In this document: in pieces, positions 42,801 to 62,024 of the stretch
Numbering within the stretch: position 1 is the first letter of the stretch
How the letters are laid out: each line of letters opens with the position of its first letter
Source of the DNA: Euryarchaeota archaeon UBA19
GTDB taxonomy: Archaea > Thermoplasmatota > Poseidoniia > Poseidoniales > Thalassarchaeaceae
Direction of reading: 5' to 3'
Length of the DNA stretch: 64,000 nucleotides
Assembly (NCBI GenBank): GCA_002502175.1
Contig: DAPQ01000075.1
Location: forward strand, 9,170 to 73,169
The notes under the pieces: model-generated
Databases searched by the model: none
The model's input: the letters and a program-made list of their open reading frames with translations, nothing else
What the model was told of the DNA's origin: nothing
Translations under genes and position numbers: made by a program

Positions 42801-45800
42801 AAATCTATCTCAAGGAAGGACATAGCAGGGTAAACGTACATCTCTACCGTATCATTTTCACCATCAACCATCAGAGTTGCTTCAGTTGCATTTAGCCACT
42901 CTAAATCGGTTGTAAATGTCCAGTTACCTTCGGGCAAAATTGTGTTAAATGTACCAAATTGGGTAACGTCAATATGCCACACAGCATCAATATCATCATT
43001 GGTCGCAAATACAGTAACCTGCTCCCATCCTTCTAGATTTGATGAGTAATAATTTCCTAATCGATTTAGATTTAGGTTTCCATTAACATCGTAACCCGGA
43101 CGTGCGACCATTGTGATATTTTCCATACCCTCTTCGACTGTGAATCGGGTACCATTAACCACATTCAGGACACTACCAAACACTGCAGCGTCAACTACAG
43201 AACCAATCGGCAATACGACGTTGAATACACCATTTGCGTCGGTAGTTTCGGTTGTTGTGAAATTTTCCCAATGGAAAATCACCTGAGTAAAGTCAACAAC
43301 CTCAGCTTGGATCGTGGAATTGGTGACTTCTGCATTTGTATCATAGTAAACTGTTCCAATTACATTCATTGATTCCCTGAAAGTAAAGGAAGTCGAAATG
43401 TCTGATTCAAGGTCAATTTGTTCCCATAATTGCTCGGAATCACTCAAGTCATGGCTGAGGATCCATTGACCTTGAGATAATTCCGCCAAGTATTCTCCAC
43501 TGACGTTATCGAATACAGCAATAACTGGTGCTGCTGAATTATCACTCTTTACCAGAGTCAAATTTTCGAGACCCTCAACAGATGTTTGTGAACCATCAAC
43601 GATTTGACTTAATGAGAATCTCAAATCGAATACAGTAGGTATTGGAGTTGGGAATTCAACTTGCGAATCCATTTCAGCATCGAATTCATGCCTCAACTCA
43701 ACTTCATTGAAGCCGTCTTCATCCATATCCAAAGCAAAGGTATACTCTCCTGGCATGATAGGACCGAACTCGAAAGAACCGTTCTCATCTGCGGTTAACA
43801 TACATGGCGCGTACATTACTTCACTACATTCTCCGAGAATAGTATCATTGTCAGATTCGGAGTGAACCATAGTTACAAAACCAGCCAAAGTATTGCCATT
43901 TTCATCGGTTAATGTTCCGGAAATGGATCCACCCGCAACATCGATTTGATGAAGTGACGGCACCCCTCTGAAAGGAACGTTAAATCCATCAATAATTTCG
44001 ATTCTAGTGCCATCGTTGAAGATAACTGCTACGTTGTAATTTCCAGGTATGGCGTCGATTAGGTGGAATGTTCCAGCTTGAACCATAGGCCCACTGAACT
44101 CACCCTCTCCGCTGAAAGTACCCGTGCCGTTTAGGGTTCCATAGGAATCTAGTTCTTCATTACTGGCGTCTACGGTGAATACACCTGCTCCAATTAGAGA
44201 CGAACCATTGTGTTCTTGTGAGAATGAGGATGTACCGTTTGAAGTAAATCTACCAGTTGCATTAACTGCACCCTCAATCAAGAAGTCTCCATCTGATAGG
44301 GAACAAACCGAGTAGTTCTCTGGCATTGTTCCATTTTCGTTACAATCTCCATCAACAATGTCCTCTCCATCAATTACTCCGGAGAGGGTTCCACGGCCGG
44401 TAAATTCACCGGATCCTGCTAGACTGTGCCCGTGAAGAATAGTCTGTGTGTGAGTCCCCACGAAATCATTGACTGTCATCAGACCATTGCTGATGACTTC
44501 TCCTTCACCAGTAAATGTCACTTGACCGATTCCTTGGAAAGCAAGGTCGGGGCCGTTTACGCTACCTGTAGAAGTTTCCAACATAATTGGTTGCATCTGA
44601 ATTTGATCCCAAGCAGGCGACAATTCAACAACAGCATCGGTGATTGCTTGACCACTGAACGAACCGGCGCCATTCCAAATTAATCGACCTGTAGAGAATG
44701 ATGGTTCTACGATGATATCCCCGTTAATTAGAGCTTGACCATTGGAATGGCCATCTTCTCCGGAGACATTAATGATAGTCTCGGATAACCACTGAGAGCC
44801 GGATACATTACCCAATATTCCAGTGATAAGGTTGACATTTCTTTCACCAATTGTTGATTCGGTTGCTACATCTTGAAGCATACCTCCACCACCGCTTGCT
44901 AATTCATCACGAGCCGCCCTTAGATCAGACTCGCCAAAGAAGGCTGAAACTCTTATCTTCCCTGCTGGAACAGTGAATGAATAATCTCCGTTTTCATCTG
45001 CATCTACTGTACCAATAGGAATCCAATAAGTTCGAGGGTCTTGATCAGTTACAGTGCCATTTTCATCGGGGACCTCTTCGCCACTAAAGGCGTCCCTTTC
45101 GATTAATATTCTAGCATTAGGGACAGGACCTATTCCGTCTAATTCAACTGTACCTTCTATAGTCGCACCGCTGTAGTATTTGACGACCTTAACATTTGAA
45201 TTTGCTCTACCGATAGCAGCATAGCCACCATCGAAAATATCTGGAACGCTGTTATTGTCTTCATCGGGTGAGTCTGAACCGTCATCGTACCAATTTGCGA
45301 TGACGAAGTGATTCATCATTGCACCAGGAAGCGGGAAGGCGTTCTCTAGTGGGGAACCGGGGGTTCCGCTGATAGCCCATGTTGGCCCTGGTTGTGATGG
45401 GTCAACTGTTAATCCCAAGCTTGAAGTTCCATATCCAACATAGATTCTTGCAACCATAGTTTCGAAGAAAGATTCGGTTTGCTGATACTGTATATCGACA
45501 AGCTGAATCATGTCTGTGGAATCTTCCATTGCTCCAGACTGCTGCTTGACAACATCCGACATATACTCCTGTTCATAGCGCTCAGCACTCATGAAGACAG
45601 TTGGTCTATCTCCTCGCTGAGTCTCATAGACCGATTCAATGTAATGATTCGGATCTAGACCAGAAAGGGTAGTTGGCGCGTAGAAGATTCCAGTTGTTTG
45701 ACCTCTGTGGTAACTTTGATCCGCGTAATACGCTCCACCAAGCGGATACAATCTATCGTCTATTGCGAAGTAGCGAATCTCATTATTTCGTTCGATAGTT

Positions 45801-48800
45801 TCTCCCAAACTACCTTGATAATCCTGAACTTCGTAGACAACTTGAGAAGAAATATCATGGTACATTTCCACTAATTCATCTAAGGTAAGTGCAGTGGTCA
45901 GGAAAGCACGTGATAGACCTAACTTAGCATTAGCACGATGTAGGTTTGTTGAAACGTCATCATAACTTTCGATTAAGTCGGCAGTGTATCTGTAACCACC
46001 AATTTCGTAATGCGTTGTTTGCTCCTCATAGGGTTGGCTAGAGCCACGTGCTTGGTCGAAGATCGATTTAGCCTCTGTCTCATTTGTGGTTGCATTTCCA
46101 ACTTGCTTTCCATCCTTGAAGACGAACCACATTGGTTCGGTTGGAAGTCCATTTTCATCAAGTATGGTACCGTGCATCAAATCTGTAGTAATCTTCAGGT
46201 TTCCAGCTGTAAAGGAAGAATCTTGTACCTCCTGTACATTTTGATAGATTAGTACCAAAGAACGATCGATTACGAATTGCTTTTGACCTGGTCCAAGTGA
46301 TAGAATATCATGGAACTCCTCAACTTGTTCTGTTGTTAGGTGGTTCTGAATGGCTTGGGTAAATTCCTCGCCAAATTCTCCGTTTCCGGAATATTGCCTA
46401 TCTCCTTGAGCCAGTGTGGCGATAAACATAGCAAGTGTATCTTCTTGACTGGAGGATAGTAACATTCCACCACTATGAGGAATACCGGACTGGAAGTTAT
46501 CAGCAACGGTAGGGTGCTCTCCCGAATCCAATGCTTGGAATCCATAATCCCACCAAGAGACGAAAGCGGGTCTTTGGCCAAAGTCCTCATCAGAATCTTG
46601 TTCTGAAAGCCATTCATAGGCCATATTCCAACCTCCGCCGTTGAATCCAGGGCCGAATGTTCCCATGTACCAACAACCATTTCCACAATTTGCTGTTGGA
46701 TTGTATGAACTGCTGTCTAGAAGTGAAAGCCCTCCGATATCGAATCTCATTACGTCTGGAGTAATATCGTAAATTACCTGATCTACATCTCCCGAAGCAG
46801 TCTCACCTCTTGGAATACCTGAATCGATACCGTAGGTTGCATGTTGAGTTGCCACCAGCATGAATACTAGCACTAAGGCTGGAATCATCGGCTTCTTCAT
46901 ACTAGCAGTTCTAGCAGAACGGAAGCGAGCTCTTGGAGTTCCAATTCCTGCGCGACGCCATTCTTTGATGAAGCCGGAGAAATCAGCCATATTCCAAAGA
47001 GCGGCGATTCCGATAGCCCCAACAACGGCCATTGCAGGAGTTGCGTTTAGAATGAATCTACCAGCGGTCCAAGCCATGTATGAAGCGATTAGAACCCACA
47101 AACCAACGAGCGAAAGGCCTTGCTTTTCTTCTCTGGCCCCTCGCCAAAGTAGGATGAATGCATAACCTAATGCAATCAGTGTAACAATCGGGCCGAAGGA
47201 AGCGAATAGTACACCTCTACTCGGGGCCTGAGCCTCACCGATTGTTCCGAATATCTTGTTCTTTGAGAAATAGAATCCACCAGTGAATAAGATGTCCCAG
47301 CCGTCGTAATATTCAGCGGTTTGTAGAATCCACAATGCCGATAGAATACCGCCAAATAGCAAGCCACCGCTTCCTAATACCAATAGCCAAGGTTTGTCGC
47401 GGAAGCTAGATGCGACCCAACCTAATGCGATTGTAAATCCAACAATGTAGAACATAGGTTGGAATCCACTTGGGGCCCATAGTAGGTTAAGTCCAGGCCA
47501 TATGTAGAATGGTAATGGGATTAGGAATGTTGTGAACATCATCTGCAAAGCGGCCGAGGTAAGCGGTAGGCTGTCACGTCGGCGGAACATATTCAGAACT
47601 ATTTGGAAAGCAAATGCGAGGAAAAGAATACCAGGACCGTAAACGAATCCTTTCCAACCAAGCGCTACTGTAGAGAAGCTAATACCTGCTAGTGTCGCAT
47701 AGGACATCATAACTGGATTTCGATTCCACATCTCGCGAATTCCAGCAACCAAGTAAAGTGGATTGGCGCTTGGGTCGCGGAATACCCTTTCACTACCAAT
47801 TTCTCCTAATGCTCGAACCCAGAAGTAGATGGCTAGGGTTAGGAAAAGAAGTGCAAAGGAGTCGTGGTCTGCTAGACCAAACGTTGAGTGGCTAATGTGC
47901 CCGGGCATCAATGCCATGAGCCATGCAGCGAATATTCCTGCCTGTGCGCTGTGAAGGCGGTTTGCAATTCCAGCAACTGGCAGAACAATCAATGCTCCGA
48001 AGATGGCTGGCAAACCTGCAACGGACCACCAAACGACTTCTTCGGCTGCGATACCAGTTAGCCATTCAAGAGCGAGGCCACCTAATGCTAGGCACCACGA
48101 AAACAGTGGGGGTCGAGGATTGATTCCTCCACTAGGGTAGGATCGGTCAGCATCGAAAATGAAGTGTGCATGCTCAGCTACAATGTAATCTACAACCCTC
48201 TTCATGTACCAAGGGTCTGAACCTCCAGTCATATCCCAAAGCCCTGTTATGTTTGCATTCATTGCAGGAAGGACGTTCCAACCGGTTCTAATCAAGAGAC
48301 CAACAATTACTGCAGAGCCAACTAGGATGGAATAGGAATTATCTCTCCACCATAAGCGGAACTGACTAGGTTCACGACGAGGGGCAATATCCCCGAACCT
48401 TCCACTAGATGCAAGGATGATTGCAAGTACATTCAACCAGAACGTAATGAAGAACCAAGAGAATGCACCACCGAAGTCATTACCGGCTAGGAATTCTAAT
48501 TGTTCAGGGAGGCTAACTCCGATCTCAACCAAGTGAGATAGAGTGTAAATTAGCCAATTTACCGCAACTACTGCCCCTAGAACGTGCCATCTCTCAGCAC
48601 GACAGAAGGCTACAAACATCACTACTACTGAGGTTACTAGAGCCCACACCCCTCCAAGGTAATGGTGTTCCTCAAAGGTAGCAGCATCTGAGATAGTTGC
48701 TATTGAATAGAGTGGAATTAAGTTAACAATCAAGAGAATGAATGAAGTGATTAGTATATCACGATGCTCTGAGAAATCTATTTTCTTTGGAAGCCTATCG

Positions 48801-49408
48801 AACAAAGATCCATTTCCACCATCATACAAAACTCCCCTGAACAATACAGCAAAAATTGTTCCAAGCATCAATGATGCAGCATAGAAAGAAAAGAAATTAG
48901 CGGCTATACCGGCCCTTTGGACATCGATTAATAGATTCTGTAAACTATCTCCTTCAGATAGTGCCAATTCCGGCATAGAGGCGGCATAGGCCACAGAAAC
49001 GTGAAACCCAGCGACCATAGAGAATAGGATTGTTGCTTCCTCATTTCTATTCGATTTTACAAGAATGAGTGTTGACATAGCCACGAATGCAAAAGTAGTT
49101 GCTAGTATGGCGTCAATAAATCCGAGTATTTCCAGGGCTATCGGTCCGACTGCAAAGAGTAGTACGAATAGCGAGTTTCGGTTTAATGGTGAATCTTCTG
49201 GAAGGGCAGATACCCAAAACCTTCCCATTACAGCCGCTAACGCGGCTGCGACGGGGAGGATAACCAACTTTCCTGTGTCAATCATCGCATCATCAGAGAG
49301 GGATGTGGCAGCGAAGAGTAACAGAAGTAATCCTGCTAACACCGCTGGTGCCGAAACCAGTCCATTGTACTGGCCGACGTCCCTCGTTTTCCCGTTTTCA
49401 TAAGACAT
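39872..49408 (-). CDS. aglB: Giant (3178 aa) oligosaccharyltransferase AglB/STT3 fused to an extra polytopic N-domain and a roughly 2100-aa extracellular repeat region with C-terminal TM anchor
   Basis: STT3 signature in canonical order: GGSDPWYMKRVVDY, GLADHDSF, FGTIGEAQ (TIXE) and WWDYG (nt 46541-46555), followed by TVADNFQSG. About 9-10 extra hydrophobic segments (by eye) precede the core. Repetitive beta-sandwich-like sequence follows it. Terminal TM IGIILAIILVFVVWYF. Confidence 0.85.
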   Translation of the reverse strand: MSYENGKTRDVGQYNGLVSAPAVLAGLLLLLFAATSLSDDAMIDTGKLVILPVAAALAAVMGRFWVSALPEDSPLNRNSLFVLLFAVGPIALEILGFIDAILATTFAFVAMSTLILVKSNRNEEATILFSMVAGFHVSVAYAASMPELALSEGDSLQNLLIDVQRAGIAANFFSFYAASLMLGTIFAVLFRGVLYDGGNGSLFDRLPKKIDFSEHRDILITSFILLIVNLIPLYSIATISDAATFEEHHYLGGVWALVTSVVVMFVAFCRAERWHVLGAVVAVNWLIYTLSHLVEIGVSLPEQLEFLAGNDFGGAFSWFFITFWLNVLAIILASSGRFGDIAPRREPSQFRLWWRDNSYSILVGSAVIVGLLIRTGWNVLPAMNANITGLWDMTGGSDPWYMKRVVDYIVAEHAHFIFDADRSYPSGGINPRPPLFSWCLALGGLALEWLTGIAAEEVVWWSVAGLPAIFGALIVLPVAGIANRLHSAQAGIFAAWLMALMPGHISHSTFGLADHDSFALLFLTLAIYFWVRALGEIGSERVFRDPSANPLYLVAGIREMWNRNPVMMSYATLAGISFSTVALGWKGFVYGPGILFLAFAFQIVLNMFRRRDSLPLTSAALQMMFTTFLIPLPFYIWPGLNLLWAPSGFQPMFYIVGFTIALGWVASSFRDKPWLLVLGSGGLLFGGILSALWILQTAEYYDGWDILFTGGFYFSKNKIFGTIGEAQAPSRGVLFASFGPIVTLIALGYAFILLWRGAREEKQGLSLVGLWVLIASYMAWTAGRFILNATPAMAVVGAIGIAALWNMADFSGFIKEWRRAGIGTPRARFRSARTASMKKPMIPALVLVFMLVATQHATYGIDSGIPRGETASGDVDQVIYDITPDVMRFDIGGLSLLDSSSYNPTANCGNGCWYMGTFGPGFNGGGWNMAYEWLSEQDSDEDFGQRPAFVSWWDYGFQALDSGEHPTVADNFQSGIPHSGGMLLSSSQEDTLAMFIATLAQGDRQYSGNGEFGEEFTQAIQNHLTTEQVEEFHDILSLGPGQKQFVIDRSLVLIYQNVQEVQDSSFTAGNLKITTDLMHGTILDENGLPTEPMWFVFKDGKQVGNATTNETEAKSIFDQARGSSQPYEEQTTHYEIGGYRYTADLIESYDDVSTNLHRANAKLGLSRAFLTTALTLDELVEMYHDISSQVVYEVQDYQGSLGETIERNNEIRYFAIDDRLYPLGGAYYADQSYHRGQTTGIFYAPTTLSGLDPNHYIESVYETQRGDRPTVFMSAERYEQEYMSDVVKQQSGAMEDSTDMIQLVDIQYQQTESFFETMVARIYVGYGTSSLGLTVDPSQPGPTWAISGTPGSPLENAFPLPGAMMNHFVIANWYDDGSDSPDEDNNSVPDIFDGGYAAIGRANSNVKVVKYYSGATIEGTVELDGIGPVPNARILIERDAFSGEEVPDENGTVTDQDPRTYWIPIGTVDADENGDYSFTVPAGKIRVSAFFGESDLRAARDELASGGGGMLQDVATESTIGERNVNLITGILGNVSGSQWLSETIINVSGEDGHSNGQALINGDIIVEPSFSTGRLIWNGAGSFSGQAITDAVVELSPAWDQIQMQPIMLETSTGSVNGPDLAFQGIGQVTFTGEGEVISNGLMTVNDFVGTHTQTILHGHSLAGSGEFTGRGTLSGVIDGEDIVDGDCNENGTMPENYSVCSLSDGDFLIEGAVNATGRFTSNGTSSFSQEHNGSSLIGAGVFTVDASNEELDSYGTLNGTGTFSGEGEFSGPMVQAGTFHLIDAIPGNYNVAVIFNDGTRIEIIDGFNVPFRGVPSLHQIDVAGGSISGTLTDENGNTLAGFVTMVHSESDNDTILGECSEVMYAPCMLTADENGSFEFGPIMPGEYTFALDMDEDGFNEVELRHEFDAEMDSQVEFPTPIPTVFDLRFSLSQIVDGSQTSVEGLENLTLVKSDNSAAPVIAVFDNVSGEYLAELSQGQWILSHDLSDSEQLWEQIDLESDISTSFTFRESMNVIGTVYYDTNAEVTNSTIQAEVVDFTQVIFHWENFTTTETTDANGVFNVVLPIGSVVDAAVFGSVLNVVNGTRFTVEEGMENITMVARPGYDVNGNLNLNRLGNYYSSNLEGWEQVTVFATNDDIDAVWHIDVTQFGTFNTILPEGNWTFTTDLEWLNATEATLMVDGENDTVEMYVYPAMSFLEIDFFLDNTGDNSVTNGTLVNYQFSIVPLENSAGLTINVAEDGEEWISQGFARVPVEAGSYRINVELSNARAGDIFGTRIMTGDAYFEVGFGGEVVSRSIGFDPEWKVDLTFTNESGGPLVDQLVRFINPENSGEVITRKTDMNGTLIDHLADGEWIVVIDSVETDTGVIEGVRTTITVSEQNANNAETISTSELASFSVRISDSNGIYLQDMDLKLTSNDGLGTVYLDSTDESGQTSGIISSGSWNIELNQTVDRTRYVISSIELLDGGLVAGENDLIDIIASTHYEMSGTIFWDHDDDDDADVGEGVPDVEILMTSEGHDNISQITNAAGEWSVFVPADTTWQVSTFREGFDQEMESIAMNAPNSVEIELTAGYVNIFGNVSHSDLSNIGEQVELILIPSHGMVRDRVVPDKVFEDGVWNGQWTASVEPGRWIIRATLESSNLVGMASIDADISDGGNVDIDLLYGGWLYLATQWLDFNGTQHHASESEIQGAEIIDEVEFILSSGAGVRWDAMLTEAGEISILMPTGMIGVEGSFSVDQMDRVMEYSTSKSINVPGSGTDLTASVTQDILFDRISNHTISATIVSVTGGELTDEGEFDDVQATLGDEGEYDSIEFTMSLDYLGHETVSSYTVSGNVAGTDGQYWSVEVWDQSVENWTSPFTFEFGLDSNNSTTYDNLLLRITPANQSTAQSLTNGHTVDIRFTSADGYQFEQEVIVRIPQFHDFELREPLLDVYGIRPGEELSIPLLFTNSGNGDERFEFVFDDTQLPPDWQRTGATSHTVGAFVDTTHTIKVIAPENATGTEDFIITISVTDKNNGTYPPLVIRVKTSLPVLEISNVYSNGDPLFGTIHTFTVVVENTGLVDAEKVKLVGTVRGKNVSSSVTQDVLSGDSVTYLIDINLTDFDGPSQEWFDFEISTEGQEFGEEPETVSKRYSLKAQAVDDSTPTTVIGIILAIILVFVVWYFTRSGSRRPGAPF

Positions 49409-50869: not shown

Positions 50870-51568
50870 TCAATATGGAACAGACTTCAATCCGAGTCTG
50901 TAGCCTATTATATTGAACGAGCGATGAATTATTGGGGTCAAAACAATGATTGCAATAATTGGTGGAGTTAAATCAGAATGCATCATTATCTGGTCTCTGA
51001 ATAAAATTGCAGCAGCTAGGAATATGAAAATTGCAAAGGGAAGAGTGTCTAATAGAGGGGCTTTTGAACTAACTTCTCCTTCCCTTTTCAGCCCCTGTCT
51101 GCGTTTTACAAAAGAACCCGCCATATCACCCAACATACAGGCTAACCCTAGGGTGAATCCAAGCACAAATGCAGCGCTCCATTCATTCCCAATCCAAAAC
51201 CAATCCGAAGGTTCAGAGATTAACAATGGGTCGATGAATGGCCGGTTTGAGGAAGGAGTATTTCCTTCCCAAATGTAATGCGAAATCATAACCAGTATTC
51301 CAGAAAAGACGCCCCCTCCAATAAGCCCCTCCCAAGACTTACCATCACCTAGTAACCTATTCCCATCAGAATGAATTTTACCTCCATCGATCTTGTGGTT
51401 TTCAAAGCCGAATTTATCAGGAATCCATTTTCCAAAAAGCATTGCTCCTGTATTTGCTAAATATGCAGGCCCGTATAGAATTAAGACGGTTAGCACGTTA
51501 ATCGCAAAATCTCCGGCTGTAGCATCGGGGAAAGCAAGGTCCGCCATGCTTGACATTAGTCCCGCCAT
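50870..51568 (-). CDS. carS: CDP-archaeol synthase
   Basis: Matches the A. fulgidus CarS pattern from memory: LGDGKSWEGLIGG (vs LGDGKTWRGFVGG), GDMAGSFVKRRQG (vs GDLCGSFIKRRFG) and C-terminal GYRLGLKSVPY (vs YRLNLKEVPW). The start is uncertain (51568, 51556 or 51622). Confidence 0.88.
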   Translation of the reverse strand: MAGLMSSMADLAFPDATAGDFAINVLTVLILYGPAYLANTGAMLFGKWIPDKFGFENHKIDGGKIHSDGNRLLGDGKSWEGLIGGGVFSGILVMISHYIWEGNTPSSNRPFIDPLLISEPSDWFWIGNEWSAAFVLGFTLGLACMLGDMAGSFVKRRQGLKREGEVSSKAPLLDTLPFAIFIFLAAAILFRDQIMMHSDLTPPIIAIIVLTPIIHRSFNIIGYRLGLKSVPY

Positions 51569-51647
51569 ATACTCATGCGAGAAGAACTCTCGGTTTCTTG
51601 CACATGCCGCCGATTCCTTCATTGATTACTTATTGTACGCGTCATCG

Positions 51648-53339
51648 ATGAGTAAATCGAAGACTATGCTATTGGCAACATTTTTGCTAACCGCTTTAGC
51701 CACAACAACCTCCCTTAACGTCGTAGCACAACCATCCGAAATTATCATTGATTCAAGGGTTGAATGGATTGAAGATCGCTCACTAGAGGTCGATTTACGA
51801 ATCGTTTCCGGAGGTGATTTAACGCTTAATGGACTTACTCTCGATATAAACGACAGAGTGAATATTTACGTGGAATCTGGCGGTATACTAAACGTCCAAA
51901 ACTCACATATCCAAGATAATAATCCTCCGACTGGATTAGCAGGTTACGGATATTGGGATGAAGATAATCGTTCGGCTGTATTAATCCCTGGTTCAGATTA
52001 TGATGGAGCGTTCGATGCCACATTTTATTCGGGAGAAACTAGCACATTTTACGGAGGTCAGGCTATCATCGAAGGGCAAGACCCCATCGATCTGAACGGT
52101 AGTGAATTTACCCTCTCTTTCGATTCCAATACAGACGATGTTTGGGTTGATTTAGTTGGATATGGACATCAATCAGTTCATCTTGCTACAGTAACCATGA
52201 CTCCTGATGTAGGATCGGCCATTACCTACAACGCTATTGAATTAGAACATCGCAATATGATGGGCTTAGATCAGGATAGTGATACCTGTGTGTTAAATGT
52301 CGCCGGAACTGCTGATTTTGATGAGGCTTCAATTCTAGGGTGCATGGTGGTTGTTGATGGAATGATGACCTTGCATTCAACCACAATAGACAGAACAGGA
52401 CCAATCATTTCCAACAAGGATGCTGAACTTATTCTCAGTGGTCAAACTACATTCTCTATGAGTAAAGATGACCATGATGTGCGTGCACATGCAAATTCAA
52501 GGTTGCATTGGGGAGAATATGTGTTAGGAAGTGGCGGCCACACAGACCGCTGGGAGAAAATCATGGATTCTCAAGAAGTTCACTTTGATGCTGCTGGAGT
52601 TTTATTCAGGATTCTGAATTTTGGTCAATACGAAATAACTTCATCAACATATTTCAGCGATGAAAACGGAGTGGGTCTTATTGACTCAGGCGATACTCGA
52701 ACCGTTGAGATAGGTTGGGCAGATGGAAGTGTTTGGACTGAATCCGCGAGCATAGAAATCATTGAATATCGAACTGGATGGAATATGGATGAAACACTGG
52801 ACGATTATGGCGGTGGAATAATCCCATTGACTTGGGATGAAATAATCGTAATCGACGGAAATACGCCACAAATTGAATTTGTTTCGCTTGATTATCAAGA
52901 ACCAACCGAGAGCGTTTCAAGAGGAAGTAGTGGCGTTGGCTTGATGGCAAAAATAGCAAATCGTGGAACTGCTCCTGCCATTGTATACTTCACATGTGAT
53001 GTTACTGAAACTGGAGCCGCGGCGCAAATGACAAGTTATCCAGGCGGTTTGGTGGAAGCAGGAGAGGAAGTCACAATTCAATTCTCTTGGATGAATAGCG
53101 ATGTGGACAATGCAAGCTTGACCTGCGAGATACTTACACCTACCCAATTGGTAGATGAAGATGCATTTGGAGGCGGTACCGCTTCAAGCGAGCAAATTAC
53201 CTGGGTTGATGCAGAAGATGATGAAGATGGTTCAATTCTACCTGTTGTTGTTGCGTTTGCAATAGCGGTTGTAGCAATGGCAGCGTTCTTCTTCAGGATG
53301 ACAAAATCATCTGAAGAGGATGAAGAAGAATTGTATTAG
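51648..53339 (+). CDS. Hypothetical secreted protein with C-terminal TM anchor and acidic tail
   Basis: ATG 51648 gives the signal peptide MSKSKTMLLATFLLTALATTTSLNVVAQ. The upstream part of the listed ORF is antisense to carS. TM ILPVVVAFAIAVVAMAAFFF is followed by SSEEDEEELY. Confidence 0.7.
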   Translation: MSKSKTMLLATFLLTALATTTSLNVVAQPSEIIIDSRVEWIEDRSLEVDLRIVSGGDLTLNGLTLDINDRVNIYVESGGILNVQNSHIQDNNPPTGLAGYGYWDEDNRSAVLIPGSDYDGAFDATFYSGETSTFYGGQAIIEGQDPIDLNGSEFTLSFDSNTDDVWVDLVGYGHQSVHLATVTMTPDVGSAITYNAIELEHRNMMGLDQDSDTCVLNVAGTADFDEASILGCMVVVDGMMTLHSTTIDRTGPIISNKDAELILSGQTTFSMSKDDHDVRAHANSRLHWGEYVLGSGGHTDRWEKIMDSQEVHFDAAGVLFRILNFGQYEITSSTYFSDENGVGLIDSGDTRTVEIGWADGSVWTESASIEIIEYRTGWNMDETLDDYGGGIIPLTWDEIIVIDGNTPQIEFVSLDYQEPTESVSRGSSGVGLMAKIANRGTAPAIVYFTCDVTETGAAAQMTSYPGGLVEAGEEVTIQFSWMNSDVDNASLTCEILTPTQLVDEDAFGGGTASSEQITWVDAEDDEDGSILPVVVAFAIAVVAMAAFFFRMTKSSEEDEEELY

Positions 53340-54538
53340 CAGCTCGAGACTTGAGTCCAAGACTCATCTGTATCTGAGCCATCATCTCCACCACCAAATT
53401 CTGCAAGTTCGTAATATGTGGTTGACACGTGGGCGGTACGATCTCCCCACGGTGGCCCTTGAGTTGCGGATACGGTGAACTCGTAGCAGCCGAAATCAGA
53501 CTCTTCCCAATCTTCTCTGGGTATGAATTGCATGTTAATTGCGATATCTTCTACGGAGCCATCGAGAACTATCTCTGAACCGAAATCCCCCACAACTGCC
53601 GAACCAGAACCATATTCTCCATTCATTGAATCCCATGTGGCATCACCGTTGATTACTGTCACCGTAGGATAAGAAATAGCAGTCACCCCATCCTTGGATA
53701 GGGTCGCAGTAAGTTCGAAATTAGCGTGGGGCAAGGGCGCGGGAGGATTTCCTACGTTAGTTTGTAATCCGACCCATGCTTTCAGACCTACACCGATAAC
53801 ACAACTGTCTTTATTTCCTGAGCAATCATTCCCTTGACCCATTGCGCCAACCGCGAGATTTTGTGTTGTGTCAACAGTTCTTGCCAAGTGACCAGAATTC
53901 AATATAAAAGAGTCCGAAGAACTACCTGAATCTACAGTTACGATGTAACGAGAATCGGTAGCCGCATTACCAGAGTAGAATTCATCTATTGGAAGAACCA
54001 ATCTGCCGTATTTTCCGTTTGCATCATTGAGGTTTATTGACAAGGGCATGACTGATTCCCAGACTTTTTCTCCACCGTAGGTTATCGACACATCAGCATC
54101 ACCTGAAGATCCGCCGAAAAATCCGCCCGATTCTCGGATAGTGAGGGTTATTGTTTCAGCGTCTGATGATAAATCGCTGTCCGTAATCGTAAGTGAGCTG
54201 GAAAAGAGACTACTGGATATGAATGGTGAAGCAAGTAGAAGCAAGATTGTTACAGAAATAACTTCGGTAAATTTCCTATTTACTCCATCCCAAATAAGGA
54301 ACCACCCCGCTCCCGCTAATAGAATTGGCACTATAATTGCCAAGGCATATTCACTCTGAATTGATGGGAGTGAGTATAACCACATCGATACTATTGACAC
54401 TACTGCCAAACCAATTCCGATATAGAGGGAGTTAGGTACTAAGGTCTTTTTTTCTGCTTCAGGGGCCGCTACAGCGACTATCTCATCTGCTGGTTGTTGA
54501 ACGTCCATAGCCTTCTTCAGCAATCCGCCATCACTCAT
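53336..54538 (-). CDS. Hypothetical membrane protein with extracellular C-terminal domain
   Basis: Three hydrophobic helices near the N-terminus (LYIGIGLAVVSIVSMWLY; LAIIVPILLAGAGWFLIW; VISVTILLLLASPFI), then about 280 aa rich in Ser/Gly/Asp. GAGGTT lies 6 nt upstream of the ATG. Confidence 0.65.
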   Translation of the reverse strand: MSDGGLLKKAMDVQQPADEIVAVAAPEAEKKTLVPNSLYIGIGLAVVSIVSMWLYSLPSIQSEYALAIIVPILLAGAGWFLIWDGVNRKFTEVISVTILLLLASPFISSSLFSSSLTITDSDLSSDAETITLTIRESGGFFGGSSGDADVSITYGGEKVWESVMPLSINLNDANGKYGRLVLPIDEFYSGNAATDSRYIVTVDSGSSSDSFILNSGHLARTVDTTQNLAVGAMGQGNDCSGNKDSCVIGVGLKAWVGLQTNVGNPPAPLPHANFELTATLSKDGVTAISYPTVTVINGDATWDSMNGEYGSGSAVVGDFGSEIVLDGSVEDIAINMQFIPREDWEESDFGCYEFTVSATQGPPWGDRTAHVSTTYYELAEFGGGDDGSDTDESWTQVSSC

Positions 54539-54627: not shown

Positions 54628-55569
54628 TTAGAACAAACGTGCATCTAGAGGTTCTAACTCATCTGATTCCTCATCATTGGTTAGCCTTGAAGATCTACCT
54701 GCAAATGCTGCTGCTGCTAGAGCTGAAATCATCAATGTACCAATCAATTCGAAGCCAGGAAGGTAAACACCTCTAATGTAAATCGTCATGGTTTGAATTT
54801 GGTAATTCGGGATACCTTCCGTTCTCACCGAATATTCAGACGTGGCTTTGAATTGTAATGAGAAATAAGTATCCGTCCAACCTTGGTTCTTTGGAGTTCT
54901 CATCTGAACTCTAATCTTCTCTGGAGGAGCCATAGATTCGATTTCTACACTGACCAATGGAATGCTTAGTTGGAATCCATCATCATTCAACTGATCATAA
55001 TTTTCAATTTCAATATTGAATCGGTCCAGAGCATTGCCATCGTTATAGACATCGAAAACCAAGTTGTAATCGACCTTCGGACGTAATTGCAAGAAAGCGA
55101 CTTCAGATGCTACTCGAAGTCGGCTGAACTGGCGAATAATCGCCATTACGTTAGCAGCTGATGGTTCGCTGGTAACAGGGACTCCATTAGCCATTGTCAC
55201 CTCGGCACTGACCGTTACTTGGTGCTGTCCTTCAGGCGCTCTAAGTTCAGCCCTAACTAGAACTTGGAAGGACACCTCAGAGCCTCCTCCAATAGACATA
55301 GTAGCGGGTCCGGAGAAGGCCAATACGCCGGCTTGAATCTGAATCCTAACCTTTTCTTGATGAACGGTTGGATTCTCAATTCGGCAATTGATAATACTCG
55401 ATCTAGTTGCACCCGGATATACATCAATTGGTTGCGGTTGGTCGCATGTCAGGGTGATGTCAGGAACTGCACCTTGAGCCTGAACAGGTGTTGCTGCAGC
55501 CCATGTGCTTAGGAAGTACACTAGCAGTATCATTAGGGCAGGTCGAACCTTGCTTGCAGTGCTCATCAT
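54628..55569 (-). CDS. Hypothetical secreted beta-sandwich (CARDB-like) protein with C-terminal TM anchor and acidic tail
   Basis: Signal peptide RPALMILLVYFLSTWAAATPVQA. Modules such as RSSIINCRIENPTVHQEKV and YNLVFDVYNDGNALDRF. TM LIGTLMISALAAAAFA is followed by NDEESDELEPLD. Confidence 0.65.
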   Translation of the reverse strand: MMSTASKVRPALMILLVYFLSTWAAATPVQAQGAVPDITLTCDQPQPIDVYPGATRSSIINCRIENPTVHQEKVRIQIQAGVLAFSGPATMSIGGGSEVSFQVLVRAELRAPEGQHQVTVSAEVTMANGVPVTSEPSAANVMAIIRQFSRLRVASEVAFLQLRPKVDYNLVFDVYNDGNALDRFNIEIENYDQLNDDGFQLSIPLVSVEIESMAPPEKIRVQMRTPKNQGWTDTYFSLQFKATSEYSVRTEGIPNYQIQTMTIYIRGVYLPGFELIGTLMISALAAAAFAGRSSRLTNDEESDELEPLDARLF

Positions 55570-55943: not shown

Positions 55944-57497
55944 ATGGCGAAGCTTTGGGTGATGTTCTTCACATCTCTTTTGCTAGTATCAGCAATGAAT
56001 TTCTATGCAGTAATTCGAGAACCCGATTTGATTGAAATTGACGAGATTCATGAATATCCAAGGGAATCTGTGAAGGTCAAAGGAGTGCTAACTAGCTTCG
56101 TAGTAGACCCATATGGTGAACAAGCGGACAGAATTGATCTGCAAGTTCGAGAAGTGGATGGTCACTCGGTAGTCGAGGTTCGATGGTTTGTAGACCGAGA
56201 TAATGAGATTCCTCCCATTGGAACCATAATTACTGTAGAAGGTGAAGTCACTGAATGGAACGGTCGAATTTGGTTGTCATCAAATGGATACGGTGCAATA
56301 GTGTGTGCTGATTCCGATTGTGACTCTGTAGAATACACTGCTATGCAATTGGTCGAAGTTGCAATGAATCCACAGAACTTTGCTAACATGTCGGTAAAAG
56401 TAGATGGTTATTTGTCTGAATCTCTTGAACCGGATGTAACATATCATTCATTGAGCCTAATGGATAACCCATCCTATGGAAATGCAGACCATTTATTGTA
56501 CATGCAAGTGGAAGGGAGAGTAATCGATTGGATAGAAGCAGGAAGTCATGTGGAAGTTTCTGGGTGGCTACAATATGATCAGCGTTCCCTTCGCTGGAGA
56601 TTACTAGTGCAAGCAACCGCAATCGAAGTCCTAAACGAGGGATCGGTTGTTGACTTGTCATGGGAATTAGAACCCTACACACTGACCTATGAAGTTGGAA
56701 AGAATGTATCAATTGAAGGAACCGCAACCCAATCATCCGGCACTTGGTGGTTAATCGGAGATGCTCCGACTGACCGGCTCTGTTTACTGCCATCACAAGA
56801 AGATGTAGATGCAGGATTGGAGGGTATCGAACGGAAATGGTATGGTCGATTGGTCTGGTCAACAGATGAAGCAACCATCTGTCTTAGAGCGGATGGATAT
56901 ACGGCGGAAAATAACGCAGGTAATTTTGGAGATGACGTAACTCCTCTGCTAGATGTTGCTGAGAATCCATTTGATTATCTTAATCAGAACCATACATTCG
57001 AAGGATGGATAACTGACCCTATATCTCCAGATTATGACAAAGGATACGTCGGGGACGGCCCAGATTACTTCGCTCGCCAAACCAAACTGAGAATTCACCT
57101 AATTGGCGAGCATGCAGAATATATCGAAGGTGGTCAATCAATACGATTCAATGCGACAATCATTTGGTCAGAAAGCGAAGGACGAGTCATTCTTGAAGCC
57201 CGTTCTTGGACTCTAGGTCAGCCGCCATCGCCAAACACTCTGAACTGGGGGGATGGTTACAACTCCTGGAAATGGGATATTGGAAAGCTCGTTGTAATTA
57301 ATGGAGAGGCGATTATGGACGAGGACGGAAACCAATGGATTCAGAGATCTGGATCTGAAGAAAGGGTCTGTTTACTTGGGGACGGAACTGAGGCAAGTCA
57401 AACAGAGGGGCAAGGGCCTCTAGATTGGACTGGAAGATTATCTACCACAGAAGATTCTGTTGGGAATACAATGCAATTCTGTATAGATGTCAGATGA
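55944..57497 (+). CDS. Membrane-anchored protein with about five tandem OB-fold-like modules
   Basis: N-terminal anchor LWVMFFTSLLLVSAMNFYAVI. Five recurring units with a strand pattern like VKVKGVL...ITVEGEVTEWNGRIWL, VKVDGYL...VEVSGWLQYDQRSLRWRL, VSIEGTA...YGRLVW, HTFEGWI...FNATIIWSESEGRVIL and VVINGEA...WTGRL. Confidence 0.6.
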   Translation: MAKLWVMFFTSLLLVSAMNFYAVIREPDLIEIDEIHEYPRESVKVKGVLTSFVVDPYGEQADRIDLQVREVDGHSVVEVRWFVDRDNEIPPIGTIITVEGEVTEWNGRIWLSSNGYGAIVCADSDCDSVEYTAMQLVEVAMNPQNFANMSVKVDGYLSESLEPDVTYHSLSLMDNPSYGNADHLLYMQVEGRVIDWIEAGSHVEVSGWLQYDQRSLRWRLLVQATAIEVLNEGSVVDLSWELEPYTLTYEVGKNVSIEGTATQSSGTWWLIGDAPTDRLCLLPSQEDVDAGLEGIERKWYGRLVWSTDEATICLRADGYTAENNAGNFGDDVTPLLDVAENPFDYLNQNHTFEGWITDPISPDYDKGYVGDGPDYFARQTKLRIHLIGEHAEYIEGGQSIRFNATIIWSESEGRVILEARSWTLGQPPSPNTLNWGDGYNSWKWDIGKLVVINGEAIMDEDGNQWIQRSGSEERVCLLGDGTEASQTEGQGPLDWTGRLSTTEDSVGNTMQFCIDVR

Positions 57498-59270: not shown

Positions 59271-62024
59271 ATGGACAACCAACAGAAGGCAAGCGCATTA
59301 TTAGTAATCGGACTTGTATTAATTGGAATTAATTTTCTAGCATTAGCACCCTTTGTAGCAGGGCAAGTAGAGGCTGGAGTTCAGGACGTTGTAGCCGATG
59401 GCTACGACGGCTATGATGACGACGGAAACAAAAACTACACAGCAGATTATGACGATGAATGGTTAGTCTCGACCTCGGAGAGAGTATACTTCGCATACTC
59501 TCTAGATAACCCTGAGGGTGTTGATGCGGGAGAAGCTCATGAATTTACGAAAATGGGACCTTTCATCTACGAAGTCACAACAACTAGAGAAATTCTAGAT
59601 TTTGATTATGATGCTGGAGAAATCACTTATTCTGAATTTGATAGTTTTGAGTGGTGCGAGGATTGTACCTGGACAGATGACAATGGAGATTCACACAACT
59701 CTGTACCTGGTTCAACCAATATAACCCAAGTAAATATCCTTTGGAACACTCAAAGAATCGCTGGAATTTCAACTGGAATAACCTATGGTGAAGTGTTCGC
59801 TAAGGCTGGATTCGTTAACAATATGATTGCCAATGATTTGCAAAACCGAGCGCCTTCAATTTGGGCCTCAGAAGACATTTCTGGAATGGTAGATACATTC
59901 TCTCTAAGTTTGCAAGCAACGGGTATGGACGAGGTTAACGCGTCGATTTTGGCTCCATCAGGAGTTCTTTCTGGAGCATATGTTTCTGCAACTGGAGGAG
60001 GGACAACCAGTGACATACTGAACAACACTCAGACATTCTTCCCTTATGCAGACAGCATTCTATACGGGGCGCAAGATCCTTCGACTGGTATTTGCATTGC
60101 ATTAACTTGTGACATTGGCCCAATGCTAGTAGCAGGTATGGGCGCTCCTGACGGAGGGGTGGTTACTCAAACTCGTGCTGCGCTATACGGTTATGCAGAT
60201 GCAGGAGATGATATGGCAGCAATTGACCTCGCTGTATTTGCACTTGCAGGCAATACCTTCCTAGCCCATGGTGGTGGTGCTGACCTGACTCAAGTTACCG
60301 ATCTAAGACAGAGATTGGACGAAGTCAGTGGAGTTGACATTACCAACCCAGATGTCTTGAATGGTGTAATTTTTGGAACACCAGACGCTGAAATTCCAAA
60401 CGGACTTCTTTCGGTTTCGGACTACAGTGGCATCCCACTAAATGGAATTGCCCTCTTCCTATTAGGCGCACAAGGTGACCTATTTGGTACAATGACCACT
60501 TATGGAATAGGACTCACTCAACTGCTAGGGCTTTCAGATTATGGAGGAGAATGGATTGGTCTAGTTGGCACCCCGACTGAATTTGAGATGATTCTCGCAG
60601 GTGGCCAAGGTACAATGAATGCCGATGATTGGTGGCAAATCTCCTTCGGAAGTGAAGAGCCTATTGCTGGCGGTTACATACCAATTGGCTTGAACAGAGC
60701 TGAATTTGAAGGCACAATTGATATGGATGTCGCTAAGGTACAGGAGATCCTTTACACATCTCCTTATGCATTGACTTCTGACTTTGCTAGTATTTTCATG
60801 TATGGTGAACTATCAGGAAGCACTCTCCCTGCAGAAGAAGGGGGTGCAACAACTGATTGGAACGATGCTTATGTTGCTGGGTTGTATGATATCTCAGAAA
60901 GTGACGCTGCTGCGGTACGTAGTTGGGTCGCAGACTTCATGTTCGACCAAGTTATTGGCGCGCTATTGGGCTTCCAATACGGCGGTTCTGCTTACATCAC
61001 CCAGCCAGTCGATAACTGGTTGTTTGGTTGGAGAGATATTATCGTAGCCGATGTTGTTTACGCAGAACCCGACAATATGGCCTTGGGTTGGGTAAGTCTC
61101 GAAACAAATGAAACATACTTCGGCTCGGATAGCGTTACTACTGGAGATTATGATGTCTATGTCGCAAGTACAGAGGGCGATGATATGGGTCAAAGATTAC
61201 GTCAAGGTTACATTAACTCCGACGGAGATGGACATTGCGATTTCAAGTTGAATTCCGATGGAACGATGGCAGATGCAGACTCAAGTGGAATGTACCCATG
61301 TGGAGATGGCGAATTGTACGGATTCACCGAGCACCTCCCATGGAGAGCACCGCATAGGGAGACTTCCACTCTTGGATTACTATCAGCCCATGTGGGTAAC
61401 GACAACACCGTAGTTGCTGGTGCTGTTGGCGGTATCGCAGATAGTGAAAATTCGTTCAAGGTCAACCTTGTAGGATATGCAATGGCTGAATCAGTACCTG
61501 GAGATATGGAGACATACAAAGGAATTGAAATGAGGGCGCACACCGTAAACCTAGACCCTTCACAAAACCAAATTCAAGCCAAGCTAATCGGCTCAGGCTC
61601 GTTTGTTGATGTACTTCCAGGTGCATTACCTGTATACTTTGGTTCAACTGTAGACATCAAGGTAGAGCCAGTTACCCAAGTAGCGATGTACGGGAAATCC
61701 GTCTCGATGTTCCACCTAGACCTAAGAGGCCCTGGAATGCTAAATCCAGAGATGGATGTAGACACACATCCGGTATTCGAAATTCACACCTTCTCAGAAA
61801 TTGCGGATGAAGATGCTGAAACCTTCCGGTGTCGAGTTCTGGACAATATGGAACCTATGTACTGGACTGATTTCGGCGGAAGCGGGGATTGTGAATTAGA
61901 AGGAACTGCAACAATTGATCGTGTGACTGCTGTATTGTACCTCGCAAGCATAGCCATGATTGCTATTGGTGCTCTAGGGTTCGGCGGCATAGGACCTATT
62001 GCTGTATCAAAAGACGAAGATTGA
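59271..62024 (+). CDS. Two-TM hairpin ectodomain protein with CD36/LIMP-2/SR-B-family-like N- and C-proximal blocks
   Basis: N-terminal TM ALLVIGLVLIGINFLALAPFVAG and C-terminal TM VLYLASIAMIAIGALGFGGIG. VYFAYSLDNPEGVDAGEAHEFTKMGPFIYEV...ITYSEFDSFEW (nt 59484-59651) and HPVFEIHTFSEIADEDAETFRCRV (nt 61767-61838) resemble conserved CD36-family blocks recalled from human CD36. Confidence 0.55.
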   Translation: MDNQQKASALLVIGLVLIGINFLALAPFVAGQVEAGVQDVVADGYDGYDDDGNKNYTADYDDEWLVSTSERVYFAYSLDNPEGVDAGEAHEFTKMGPFIYEVTTTREILDFDYDAGEITYSEFDSFEWCEDCTWTDDNGDSHNSVPGSTNITQVNILWNTQRIAGISTGITYGEVFAKAGFVNNMIANDLQNRAPSIWASEDISGMVDTFSLSLQATGMDEVNASILAPSGVLSGAYVSATGGGTTSDILNNTQTFFPYADSILYGAQDPSTGICIALTCDIGPMLVAGMGAPDGGVVTQTRAALYGYADAGDDMAAIDLAVFALAGNTFLAHGGGADLTQVTDLRQRLDEVSGVDITNPDVLNGVIFGTPDAEIPNGLLSVSDYSGIPLNGIALFLLGAQGDLFGTMTTYGIGLTQLLGLSDYGGEWIGLVGTPTEFEMILAGGQGTMNADDWWQISFGSEEPIAGGYIPIGLNRAEFEGTIDMDVAKVQEILYTSPYALTSDFASIFMYGELSGSTLPAEEGGATTDWNDAYVAGLYDISESDAAAVRSWVADFMFDQVIGALLGFQYGGSAYITQPVDNWLFGWRDIIVADVVYAEPDNMALGWVSLETNETYFGSDSVTTGDYDVYVASTEGDDMGQRLRQGYINSDGDGHCDFKLNSDGTMADADSSGMYPCGDGELYGFTEHLPWRAPHRETSTLGLLSAHVGNDNTVVAGAVGGIADSENSFKVNLVGYAMAESVPGDMETYKGIEMRAHTVNLDPSQNQIQAKLIGSGSFVDVLPGALPVYFGSTVDIKVEPVTQVAMYGKSVSMFHLDLRGPGMLNPEMDVDTHPVFEIHTFSEIADEDAETFRCRVLDNMEPMYWTDFGGSGDCELEGTATIDRVTAVLYLASIAMIAIGALGFGGIGPIAVSKDED

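Follow-up and report, generated by a model that had tools for sequence, protein, structure and literature searches.

A probable, highly divergent member of the CD36/SR-B family in a Marine Group IIb archaeon

Introduction

Proteins of the CD36/SR-B family (Pfam PF01130, with CD36, LIMP-2/SCARB2, SR-B1, the insect SNMPs and LmpA-C of Dictyostelium) have central roles in the uptake of lipids, in innate immunity and in the biology of the lysosome. Here a gene of a Marine Group IIb archaeon, Euryarchaeota archaeon UBA19, is described whose product is very probably a true, if highly divergent, member of this family; the gene occupies positions 59271..62024 of the forward strand in a 64,000-nucleotide stretch of contig DAPQ01000075.1 (assembly GCA_002502175.1, contig positions 9,170 to 73,169), referred to below as the window. 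Its 917-residue product is, like the eukaryotic proteins, a hairpin with two transmembrane (TM) helices and very short tails, and its predicted fold has the asymmetric β-barrel that makes up the ectodomain of the eukaryotic family. Under an operational definition of the SR-Bs (Boohar et al. 2023, PMC10715195) a member has a CD36 ectodomain with a TM helix on either side, and this is the arrangement that the hydropathy peaks and AlphaFold2 (AF2) helices of the window protein display.

The likeness extends to short sequence blocks common to the eukaryotic family and the window protein, namely N.[ST]NP...GP.[TI]Y in the N-terminal part, P[IV][LF]...[DE]..A..F in the C-terminal part and a W/L-[WF]-G-[WY]-.-D motif after helix α5. 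Length varies at the apex of the window protein as it does in the non-metazoan eukaryotic members. In contrast to the eukaryotic family, the host is an archaeon and has neither an endomembrane system nor lipoproteins, the identity over the fold is only some 11-12%, and the protein carries a conserved, all-helical apex domain of about 390 residues; it is also strongly acidic and lacks the metazoan disulfide pattern.

The most complete survey of the family's evolution that the literature search turned up, that of Boohar et al. (2023), treats the SR-Bs of Eukarya only and places their origin at or before the last eukaryotic common ancestor; the strings "archaea" and "prokaryot" do not occur in its text and bacteria appear in its reference list only (PMC10715195). 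A literature search found no paper on CD36-family proteins in Poseidoniales, Asgard or other archaea, and to that extent the original prediction, which had been made from the letters of the DNA and knew of no described archaeal member, holds. It does not hold for the databases, since annotation of archaeal CD36-family proteins already exists there as names at NCBI and as precomputed Pfam matches, a protein 95% identical to that of the window being called "CD36 family protein [Candidatus Thalassarchaeum sp.]". What is new relative to the described members is the archaeal host, the extreme divergence and a conserved apex domain without detectable relative.

A second described system comes close in structure. 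The actinobacterial LmcA/PgfA proteins (MSMEG_0317, Rv0227c) are, like the window protein, prokaryotic, membrane-anchored and extracytoplasmic, with an elongated β-barrel, in their case one that has internal cavities. The authors of the LmcA structure noted a CD36-like barrel with lipid-sized cavities (PMC8972800), and PgfA, the LmcA orthologue, coordinates lipid trafficking (PMC9678360). These proteins belong to a different Pfam family (DUF3068 / PorA, PF11271) restricted to Actinobacteria, their solved chains comprise only some 250-270 residues, and they have a single protruding helix and not an apex bundle or domain.

Evidence for membership of the CD36 family

PF01130 is the sole Pfam family matched by the 917-residue protein (E=2.4e-7, 30.1 bits against a gathering cut-off of 26.5, residues 73-187 aligned to profile positions 54-150), and so the prokaryotic CD36 homologue that had been proposed by eye stands above the curated threshold of the family profile. 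The C-terminal half is not detected in the window protein by the Pfam CD36 profile. As a single sequence searched with phmmer against the Protein Data Bank (PDB) the protein finds LIMP-2/SCARB2 only, and that weakly (E~1.2), in two collinear stretches. A family alignment, A1, combines the window protein with 15 full-length relatives at 25-67% identity to it, and all 16 representatives individually match PF01130 (best E=1.3e-19); precomputed matches to the same profile exist for almost all of the closest 120 relatives. When the A1 profile is run against all PDB sequences, its only significant matches are LIMP-2 (E=7e-8, again in two collinear stretches) and CD36 (E=4e-4).

The two blocks on which the prediction was founded both hold up. 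The N-terminal one (nucleotides 59484-59651, residues 72-128) lies in the very stretch that Pfam CD36 aligns, and HMMER pairs YFAYSLDNPEGVDAGEAHEFTKMGPFIY from it with LIMP-2. In the C-terminal one (nucleotides 61767-61838, residues 833-856) the segment PVFEIHTFSEIADEDAETFRCRV pairs with the Asgard consensus MPILWLE..GEI.E.LA..FK.LV., the counterpart of the CD36 stretch to which this block had been likened, within a profile-profile alignment of 99.3% probability. That alignment, made with hhalign, joins A1 positions 530-860 to positions 472-799 of the Asgard CD36 proteins (E=8e-21), and at a relaxed threshold the two families run collinear over residues 7-860, from the first TM helix to the second. 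By the two LIMP-2 stretches and the Asgard alignment over residues 7-860, both halves of the CD36 ectodomain are present and in order.

Structure comparison points the same way. The AF2 model built on A1 (mean predicted local distance difference test score, pLDDT, 78.7; predicted template-modelling score, pTM, 0.68) was compared with the PDB by Foldseek, and the top 13 matches are all LIMP-2/SCARB2/CD36 (E=6e-6 to 1.7e-3, probability 1.00, 340-364 aligned columns), the two structures that had been named beforehand as the ones to look for. The alignment takes in 353 columns of the 392-residue LIMP-2 ectodomain. The CD36 asymmetric β-barrel fold class is in this way supported by the model, with a fit that is moderate. 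Next after LIMP-2 and CD36 comes LmcA (E=0.07-0.16, probability 0.92-0.99), which on the modelled fold appears as a structural cousin; the window protein, with no PF11271 match even at E<=10, is not a DUF3068 member, and a short paralogue of the family, P0151, reaches PF11271 only below threshold (E=0.0038, 17 bits against a cut-off of 29.5).

The disulfide pattern of metazoan ectodomains is absent from the window protein. The SR-B survey treats disulfide conservation as a metazoan feature (Boohar et al., PMC10715195), and for this reason its absence has no bearing on membership. The eight cysteines of the window protein form four local pairs (129/132, 275/280, 656/677 and 854/874); disulfides common to the whole family were considered and ruled out, the pairs being conserved only within sub-clades of Marine Group II (MGII).

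Topology and parts of the protein

The gene is complete: the open reading frame (ORF) list gives 59271..62024 (+) with an ATG start and with the stop codon included, and against orthologues the ratio of nonsynonymous to synonymous substitution rates (dN/dS) is 0.06-0.12. Strong hydropathy peaks occur at residues ~5-35 and ~880-913 only (Kyte-Doolittle, 19-residue window), and the AF2 model has long helices at residues 3-40 and 879-904, so that the predicted arrangement of one TM helix at each terminus is upheld by both. A third and weaker peak at residues 272-292 (TGICIALTCDIGPMLVAGMGA) is non-helical in the model and has Asp, Pro and Gly among its residues. Two terminal helices make a hairpin with a loop of ~840 residues between them, and in the model this loop would face outward from the cytoplasmic membrane; the cytoplasmic tails are both short, ~7 residues at the N-terminus and ~10 at the C-terminus, and the protein as a whole is strongly acidic (isoelectric point 4.05).

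The N-terminal TM helix (residues ~8-30, 59292..59360, +; Kyte-Doolittle peak 2.55) is probably an uncleaved signal anchor. Asn21 within it is kept in 15 of 16 family representatives and hence the helix is regarded as retained and functional; in the hhalign comparison it aligns with the first TM helix of the Asgard CD36 proteins. An acidic juxtamembrane linker follows (residues 41-61, 59391..59453, +), modelled with low confidence (pLDDT <50), with 33% Asp+Glu, a grand average of hydropathy (GRAVY) of -1.65 and a length that ranges from 10 to 24 residues across the family. The N-terminal half of the putative CD36 β-barrel core (residues 62-157, 59454..59741, +) comprises the part matched to Pfam positions 54-150 together with the first block; its strands run from 66 to 154 in the AF2 model, A1 profile positions 26-135 align there to LIMP-2 chain positions 4-114, and the columns of A1 hold an invariant GP.Y motif (G96, P97).

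Between the positions equivalent to 114 and 127 of the LIMP-2 chain the archaeal protein carries its apex insertion, ~388 residues and all-α (residues 158-545, 59742..60905, +). It ends just before the helix corresponding to LIMP-2 α5, and this helix (543-570) is present and aligns with that of LIMP-2, TQPVDNWLFGWRDIIV being paired with LIMP-2 THTVDELLWGYKDEIL. Together with the W-L-x-G-W-x-D motif it accounts for residues 546-600 (60906..61070, +), a segment placed by the alignment to LIMP-2, in which W583, L584, G586, W587 and D589 are invariant in the family alignment. A variable loop of low model confidence comes next (residues 601-690, 61071..61340, +; pLDDT 47-58), inside which a clade-specific insert at ~645-685, extra relative to the family consensus, holds Cys656 and Cys677, found in the closest relatives only. 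The original prediction had the protein at about twice the usual length through large insertions, and this can now be put more precisely as one main apex insertion of ~390 residues (158-545) and the small clade-specific loop at ~645-685.

The C-terminal half of the barrel core (residues 691-857, 61341..61841, +) is recognised by the hhalign alignment to Asgard CD36 and contains the second block, with strands from 730 to 843 in the AF2 model. The C-terminal TM helix (residues ~882-904, 61914..61982, +; Kyte-Doolittle peak 2.14, modelled helix 879-904) leads into a cytoplasmic tail ending in ...SKDED. A scan for bacterial-type promoters and terminators around the gene was uninformative, the host being an archaeon.

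The apex domain

The site of the insertion is the membrane-distal apex, where LIMP-2 has only ~12 residues within a three-helix bundle. In the eukaryotic SR-Bs all major length variation is concentrated at the apex, which mediates ligand recognition, and ectodomains of up to 2,294 residues occur in non-metazoan eukaryotes (Boohar et al., PMC10715195). Within the MGII family the insertion of the short paralogue P0151 has 246 residues, and those of the other 14 aligned proteins of the long type have 365-468. It is about as well conserved as the barrel (36% versus 42-44% mean identity across the order), and a dN/dS of about 0.05 indicates strong purifying selection. Its composition is rich in Gly and Ala and its GRAVY is +0.18, against -0.56 and -0.05 for the two barrel halves, which is unusually hydrophobic for an extracellular domain.

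Modelled alone the domain folds with confidence (pLDDT 89.9, pTM 0.87). Foldseek searches with this model reach nothing better than E=1.1 in the PDB and E=0.21 in BFVD, neither of them significant and none above a probability of 0.15, and no PDB match of the whole model identifies the domain either. By phmmer over 1.84 billion representative proteins it is found only in MGII-type proteins and fragments, and hhalign detects no homology with the apex inserts of the Asgard CD36 proteins (probability <1%). With no relative detectable in these searches, the modelled domain is a candidate new fold at the site where the family selects its ligands.

In two otherwise close orthologues, L003 and L007, the apex (59742-60905) has diverged with a nonsynonymous substitution rate (dN) of 0.12-0.16, against 0.02-0.045 in the flanking barrel. 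The pattern suggests recombination, or else a faster evolution of the exposed apex.

Host, distribution and selection

The uncultured MGII archaea, among the most abundant archaeal groups of the surface ocean, are photoheterotrophs believed to feed on proteins and lipids. The host taxonomy of the window (Thermoplasmatota, Poseidoniales, Thalassarchaeaceae) is that of Marine Group IIb, Ca. Thalassarchaeum, and the nearest relatives of the protein, at 85-100% identity, are from marine metagenomes. An archaeal origin of the DNA is secure because the window also encodes CDP-archaeol synthase, PurD, a subtilase and a giant STT3/AglB-containing protein.

The phmmer search over the 1.84 billion representatives yielded only 116 relatives of the window protein. 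A scan of one genome per GTDB species placed relatives in at least 221 species-level genomes, and the best 79 of these 221 species-representative matches were taken for detail. All 79 belong to Poseidoniales and both families of the order are represented; among them are one genome in a single contig of 1.6 Mb and records whose names (AG-404-A19, AH-287-P07) resemble those of single-cell assemblies. On sequence grounds the prokaryotic family looks monophyletic and confined to Poseidoniales. Bacterial members were considered in the form of two bins, Pedosphaera sp. ARS72 (L025) and Gemmatimonadetes RS373 (L032), and rejected: L025 carries MGII-type OB-like and TctA neighbours, and both are therefore regarded as probably mis-binned archaeal contigs in public metagenome-assembled genomes (MAGs).

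Against orthologues dN/dS lies between 0.05 and 0.12 in every region of the gene, from which the gene would appear functional and under strong purifying selection. Some Thalassarchaeaceae carry two full-length CD36-family paralogues, of ~870 and ~840 residues, divergent from a spacer of ~120 bp (L038 5260-10535, L044 5263-10511, L045 4671-9911, and also L043, L047 and L062).

Asgard relatives and the origin of the family

Outside Poseidoniales the window protein matched four proteins only among the 1.84 billion representatives, all from the Asgard group. An Asgard query in turn retrieved 38 proteins, every one with PF01130. In the NCBI records they fall into Hodarchaeota, Hermodarchaeota, Lokiarchaeota and Promethearchaeota, and every one that is named there is called "hypothetical protein". 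The Asgard proteins considered here are P0218, P0220, P0231, P0232 and P0286-P0320, with loci at L080 10001-11631 and L081 6525-8726. Two Asgard contigs carry Arf/Ras/Roc GTPases, and that of L081 a TBP gene also. Like the window protein these are archaeal proteins, 700-980 residues long, with two terminal TM helices and an apex insertion at the same position, although with inserts that have no detectable homology to the MGII apex domain.

The profile scores set the two archaeal groups well apart. On Pfam CD36 the Asgard proteins score 246-306 bits and the MGII proteins scanned 30-67; the Asgard profile gives 206 bits on a springtail LIMP-2 and 25-53 bits on MGII proteins, and the MGII profile gives 51-76 bits on full-length Asgard proteins and 43 bits on the same springtail LIMP-2. 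From these cross-profile scores the MGII family emerges as a divergent outlier, marginally nearer to the Asgard proteins, and by the same sequence measure the Asgard proteins are far more eukaryote-like than those of MGII. The Asgard CD36 protein is on this basis a candidate for an overlooked eukaryotic signature protein.

A wider proposal can be built on this, although it must be regarded as rather doubtful at present. The CD36/SR-B family would be archaeal in origin, with the eukaryotic copy inherited from an Asgard ancestor, and Poseidoniales would hold another archaeal branch, old and quickly diverged, which acquired an orphan-fold apex and serves as the missing lipid uptake gate of MGII. 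Inheritance from an Asgard ancestor is suggested because the Asgard proteins score so highly on a Pfam model built from eukaryotic sequences.

Gene neighbourhood

Immediately 3' of the CD36-family gene, at 62110-64000 (+) and running past the end of the window, lies a gene whose product, secreted or anchored, has two lamin-tail domains (LTD; PF00932, E=1.7e-31) and a phospholipase-D-like domain (PLD; PF13091, E=5.6e-15) with the HKD-type motif HSKVAVRD. Upstream are a 517-residue protein that has a hydrophobic segment near its N-terminus and matches an OB-fold weakly (55944-57497, +) and, 9 bases after the stop of its gene, a 551-residue membrane protein of the TctA family (PF01970; 57507-59162, +). 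The upstream pair keeps its synteny with the CD36 gene where the CD36 protein of the relative shares 44% or more identity with that of the window, and altogether the TctA-family and OB-like genes upstream and the LTD+PLD gene downstream keep their places among close relatives only. Because the association holds only among these, the LTD+PLD neighbour lends weak support to a lipid role. The neighbourhood as a whole was tried as a clue to function and rejected, there being no conserved functional partner across clades.

A different neighbourhood surrounds the short MGII-type paralogue P0151 (730 residues; L082 / L083 6001-11311), whose gene overlaps by 8 nucleotides the start of an ABC ATPase gene, itself followed by a gene for an 808-residue FtsX-family permease of the MacB/Lol type; the three apparently form an operon. 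Near the long-type genes a tblastn search gave no FtsX; its ABC matches there were distant and non-adjacent, none of these in the window, and an ABC/FtsX partner for the long-type proteins was rejected, the pairing being seen beside P0151 only.

Elsewhere in the window a giant ORF of 3,178 residues (39872-49408, -) combines an STT3/AglB oligosaccharyltransferase N-terminal domain (residues 382-607) with a CarboxypepD_reg-like domain and is unusually long for an AglB. A protein of 842 residues (31652-34180, -) fuses a STAND-type NTPase (AAA_16 / nSTAND6) to TPR repeats, an architecture typical of signalling or defence proteins. Three conserved ORFs of 648, 400 and 313 residues (51393-53339, +; 53336-54538, -; 54628-55569, -) are without Pfam match at E<=0.001 and are syntenic across many Thalassarchaeaceae loci. 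The first of these shares part of its length with the CDP-archaeol synthase gene (50870-51622, -) of the other strand, and because of this overlap its TTG start may be miscalled.

Proposed function and alternatives

Taken together, membership of the CD36 family and a role as a conduit for hydrophobic molecules, with cargo and direction left open, form a reading that seems somewhat better than an even bet. By analogy with CD36, SR-B1, LIMP-2 and LmcA/PgfA, hydrophobic molecules would pass through a tunnel in the barrel that links the apex with the outer leaflet, and the route would connect the exterior or outer envelope with the outer leaflet of the cytoplasmic membrane. The apex domain may capture or select the ligand. 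Cargo could be fatty acids of long chain length or different lipids set free from particles of phytoplankton origin, and the delivered lipid would feed the fatty-acid β-oxidation of MGII.

Inward lipid uptake specifically is put forward more tentatively, at slightly under even odds. It would be the most economical role since MGII share and transcribe fatty-acid degradation: in the available portions of two accounts of these archaea, the pathway is common to all MGII families (PMC6336850) and 3-hydroxyacyl-CoA dehydrogenase is highly transcribed in situ (PMC9723583), and those portions name no protein for fatty-acid or lipid uptake. The solved relatives bind or carry lipids, as in the structure 5uph ("Lipids bound LIMP-2") and in CD36 with palmitate (PMC8972800), and the hydrophobic character of the apex domain would fit a link to lipids as well.

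A number of observations weigh against this reading. The window protein on its own just clears the Pfam CD36 cut-off, by 3.6 bits, target-normalised TM-scores to LIMP-2/CD36 are only 0.37-0.43 with root-mean-square deviations of 7-9 Å, and residues 601-690 are poorly modelled by AF2. On the functional side, all-against-all clustering of ORFs of at least 100 residues from the 79 loci found no neighbour family shared between clades; each clade has neighbours of its own, housekeeping-like by eye (xanthine-dehydrogenase-like subunits, ArgRS-like, aRF1-like), and among the window ORFs scanned no β-oxidation gene adjoins the CD36-family gene. The narrow margin over the Pfam cut-off and the E~1.2 of the single-sequence PDB search would be expected were the resemblance to CD36 a coincidence, or the gene a eukaryotic contaminant, and yet either is effectively excluded: five independent lines agree on CD36 homology, the flanking genes are archaeal (CDP-archaeol synthase at 50870-51622, the TctA-family gene), there are no introns in the window, and all 79 of the best loci come from Poseidoniales MAGs and other assemblies produced by many studies.

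Two other accounts keep the family and the fold and change the job. In the one, judged unlikely, the protein would work outward, as a device of envelope biogenesis or lipid export that takes hydrophobic molecules out of the membrane (lipids, glycolipids, lipid-anchored proteins or pigments) and delivers them to the S-layer or the exterior, in the manner proposed for LmcA/PgfA or of LolCDE-LolA in bacteria. The operon-like adjacency of P0151 to an ABC ATPase and an FtsX permease resembling MacB/Lol-type exporters argues for it, as does the place of LmcA, which acts in lipoglycan and lipid trafficking, as the next-best structural match. SR-B1, moreover, mediates bidirectional flux. Yet the ABC/FtsX association belongs to a single paralogue cluster and is missing beside the long-type genes, that of the window included, and MGII physiology, as far as the available portions of the two accounts describe it, points to the consumption of lipid (PMC9723583, PMC6336850). 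In the other account, less probable still, the protein would be a surface receptor or adhesin whose apex binds a macromolecular partner (a particle or algal surface, a component of the S-layer, a second cell, or a virus that makes use of the protein), the barrel being a stalk and not a conduit. The proteins of the CD36 family are multi-ligand receptors, and their apex does bind proteins, as PfEMP1 on CD36 (5lgd) and glucocerebrosidase on LIMP-2 (9fjf) illustrate, and it is the ligand-sensing region of the eukaryotic SR-Bs (PMC10715195); MGII are linked to particle attachment in the available part of one account (PMC6336850), and an apex far more diverged than the barrel, as in L003 and L007, is a mosaic typical of exposed recognition surfaces. 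Against a receptor stand the strong purifying selection on the apex overall, with dN/dS of about 0.05 and conservation close to that of the barrel, its hydrophobic and Gly/Ala-rich composition, which is not adhesin-like, and the lack of any recognisable binding-domain fold in the Foldseek searches of the PDB and BFVD.

Significance

A medically important family usually thought of as "eukaryotic" very probably extends into the archaea. Bona fide CD36 members in two archaeal lineages would reopen the question of where the family arose, and the Asgard members especially make its origin directly testable by phylogeny. For the biology of the MGII archaea themselves, so abundant in the ocean, the CD36-family protein is, by analogy with its described relatives, a concrete candidate for the uptake of lipid.

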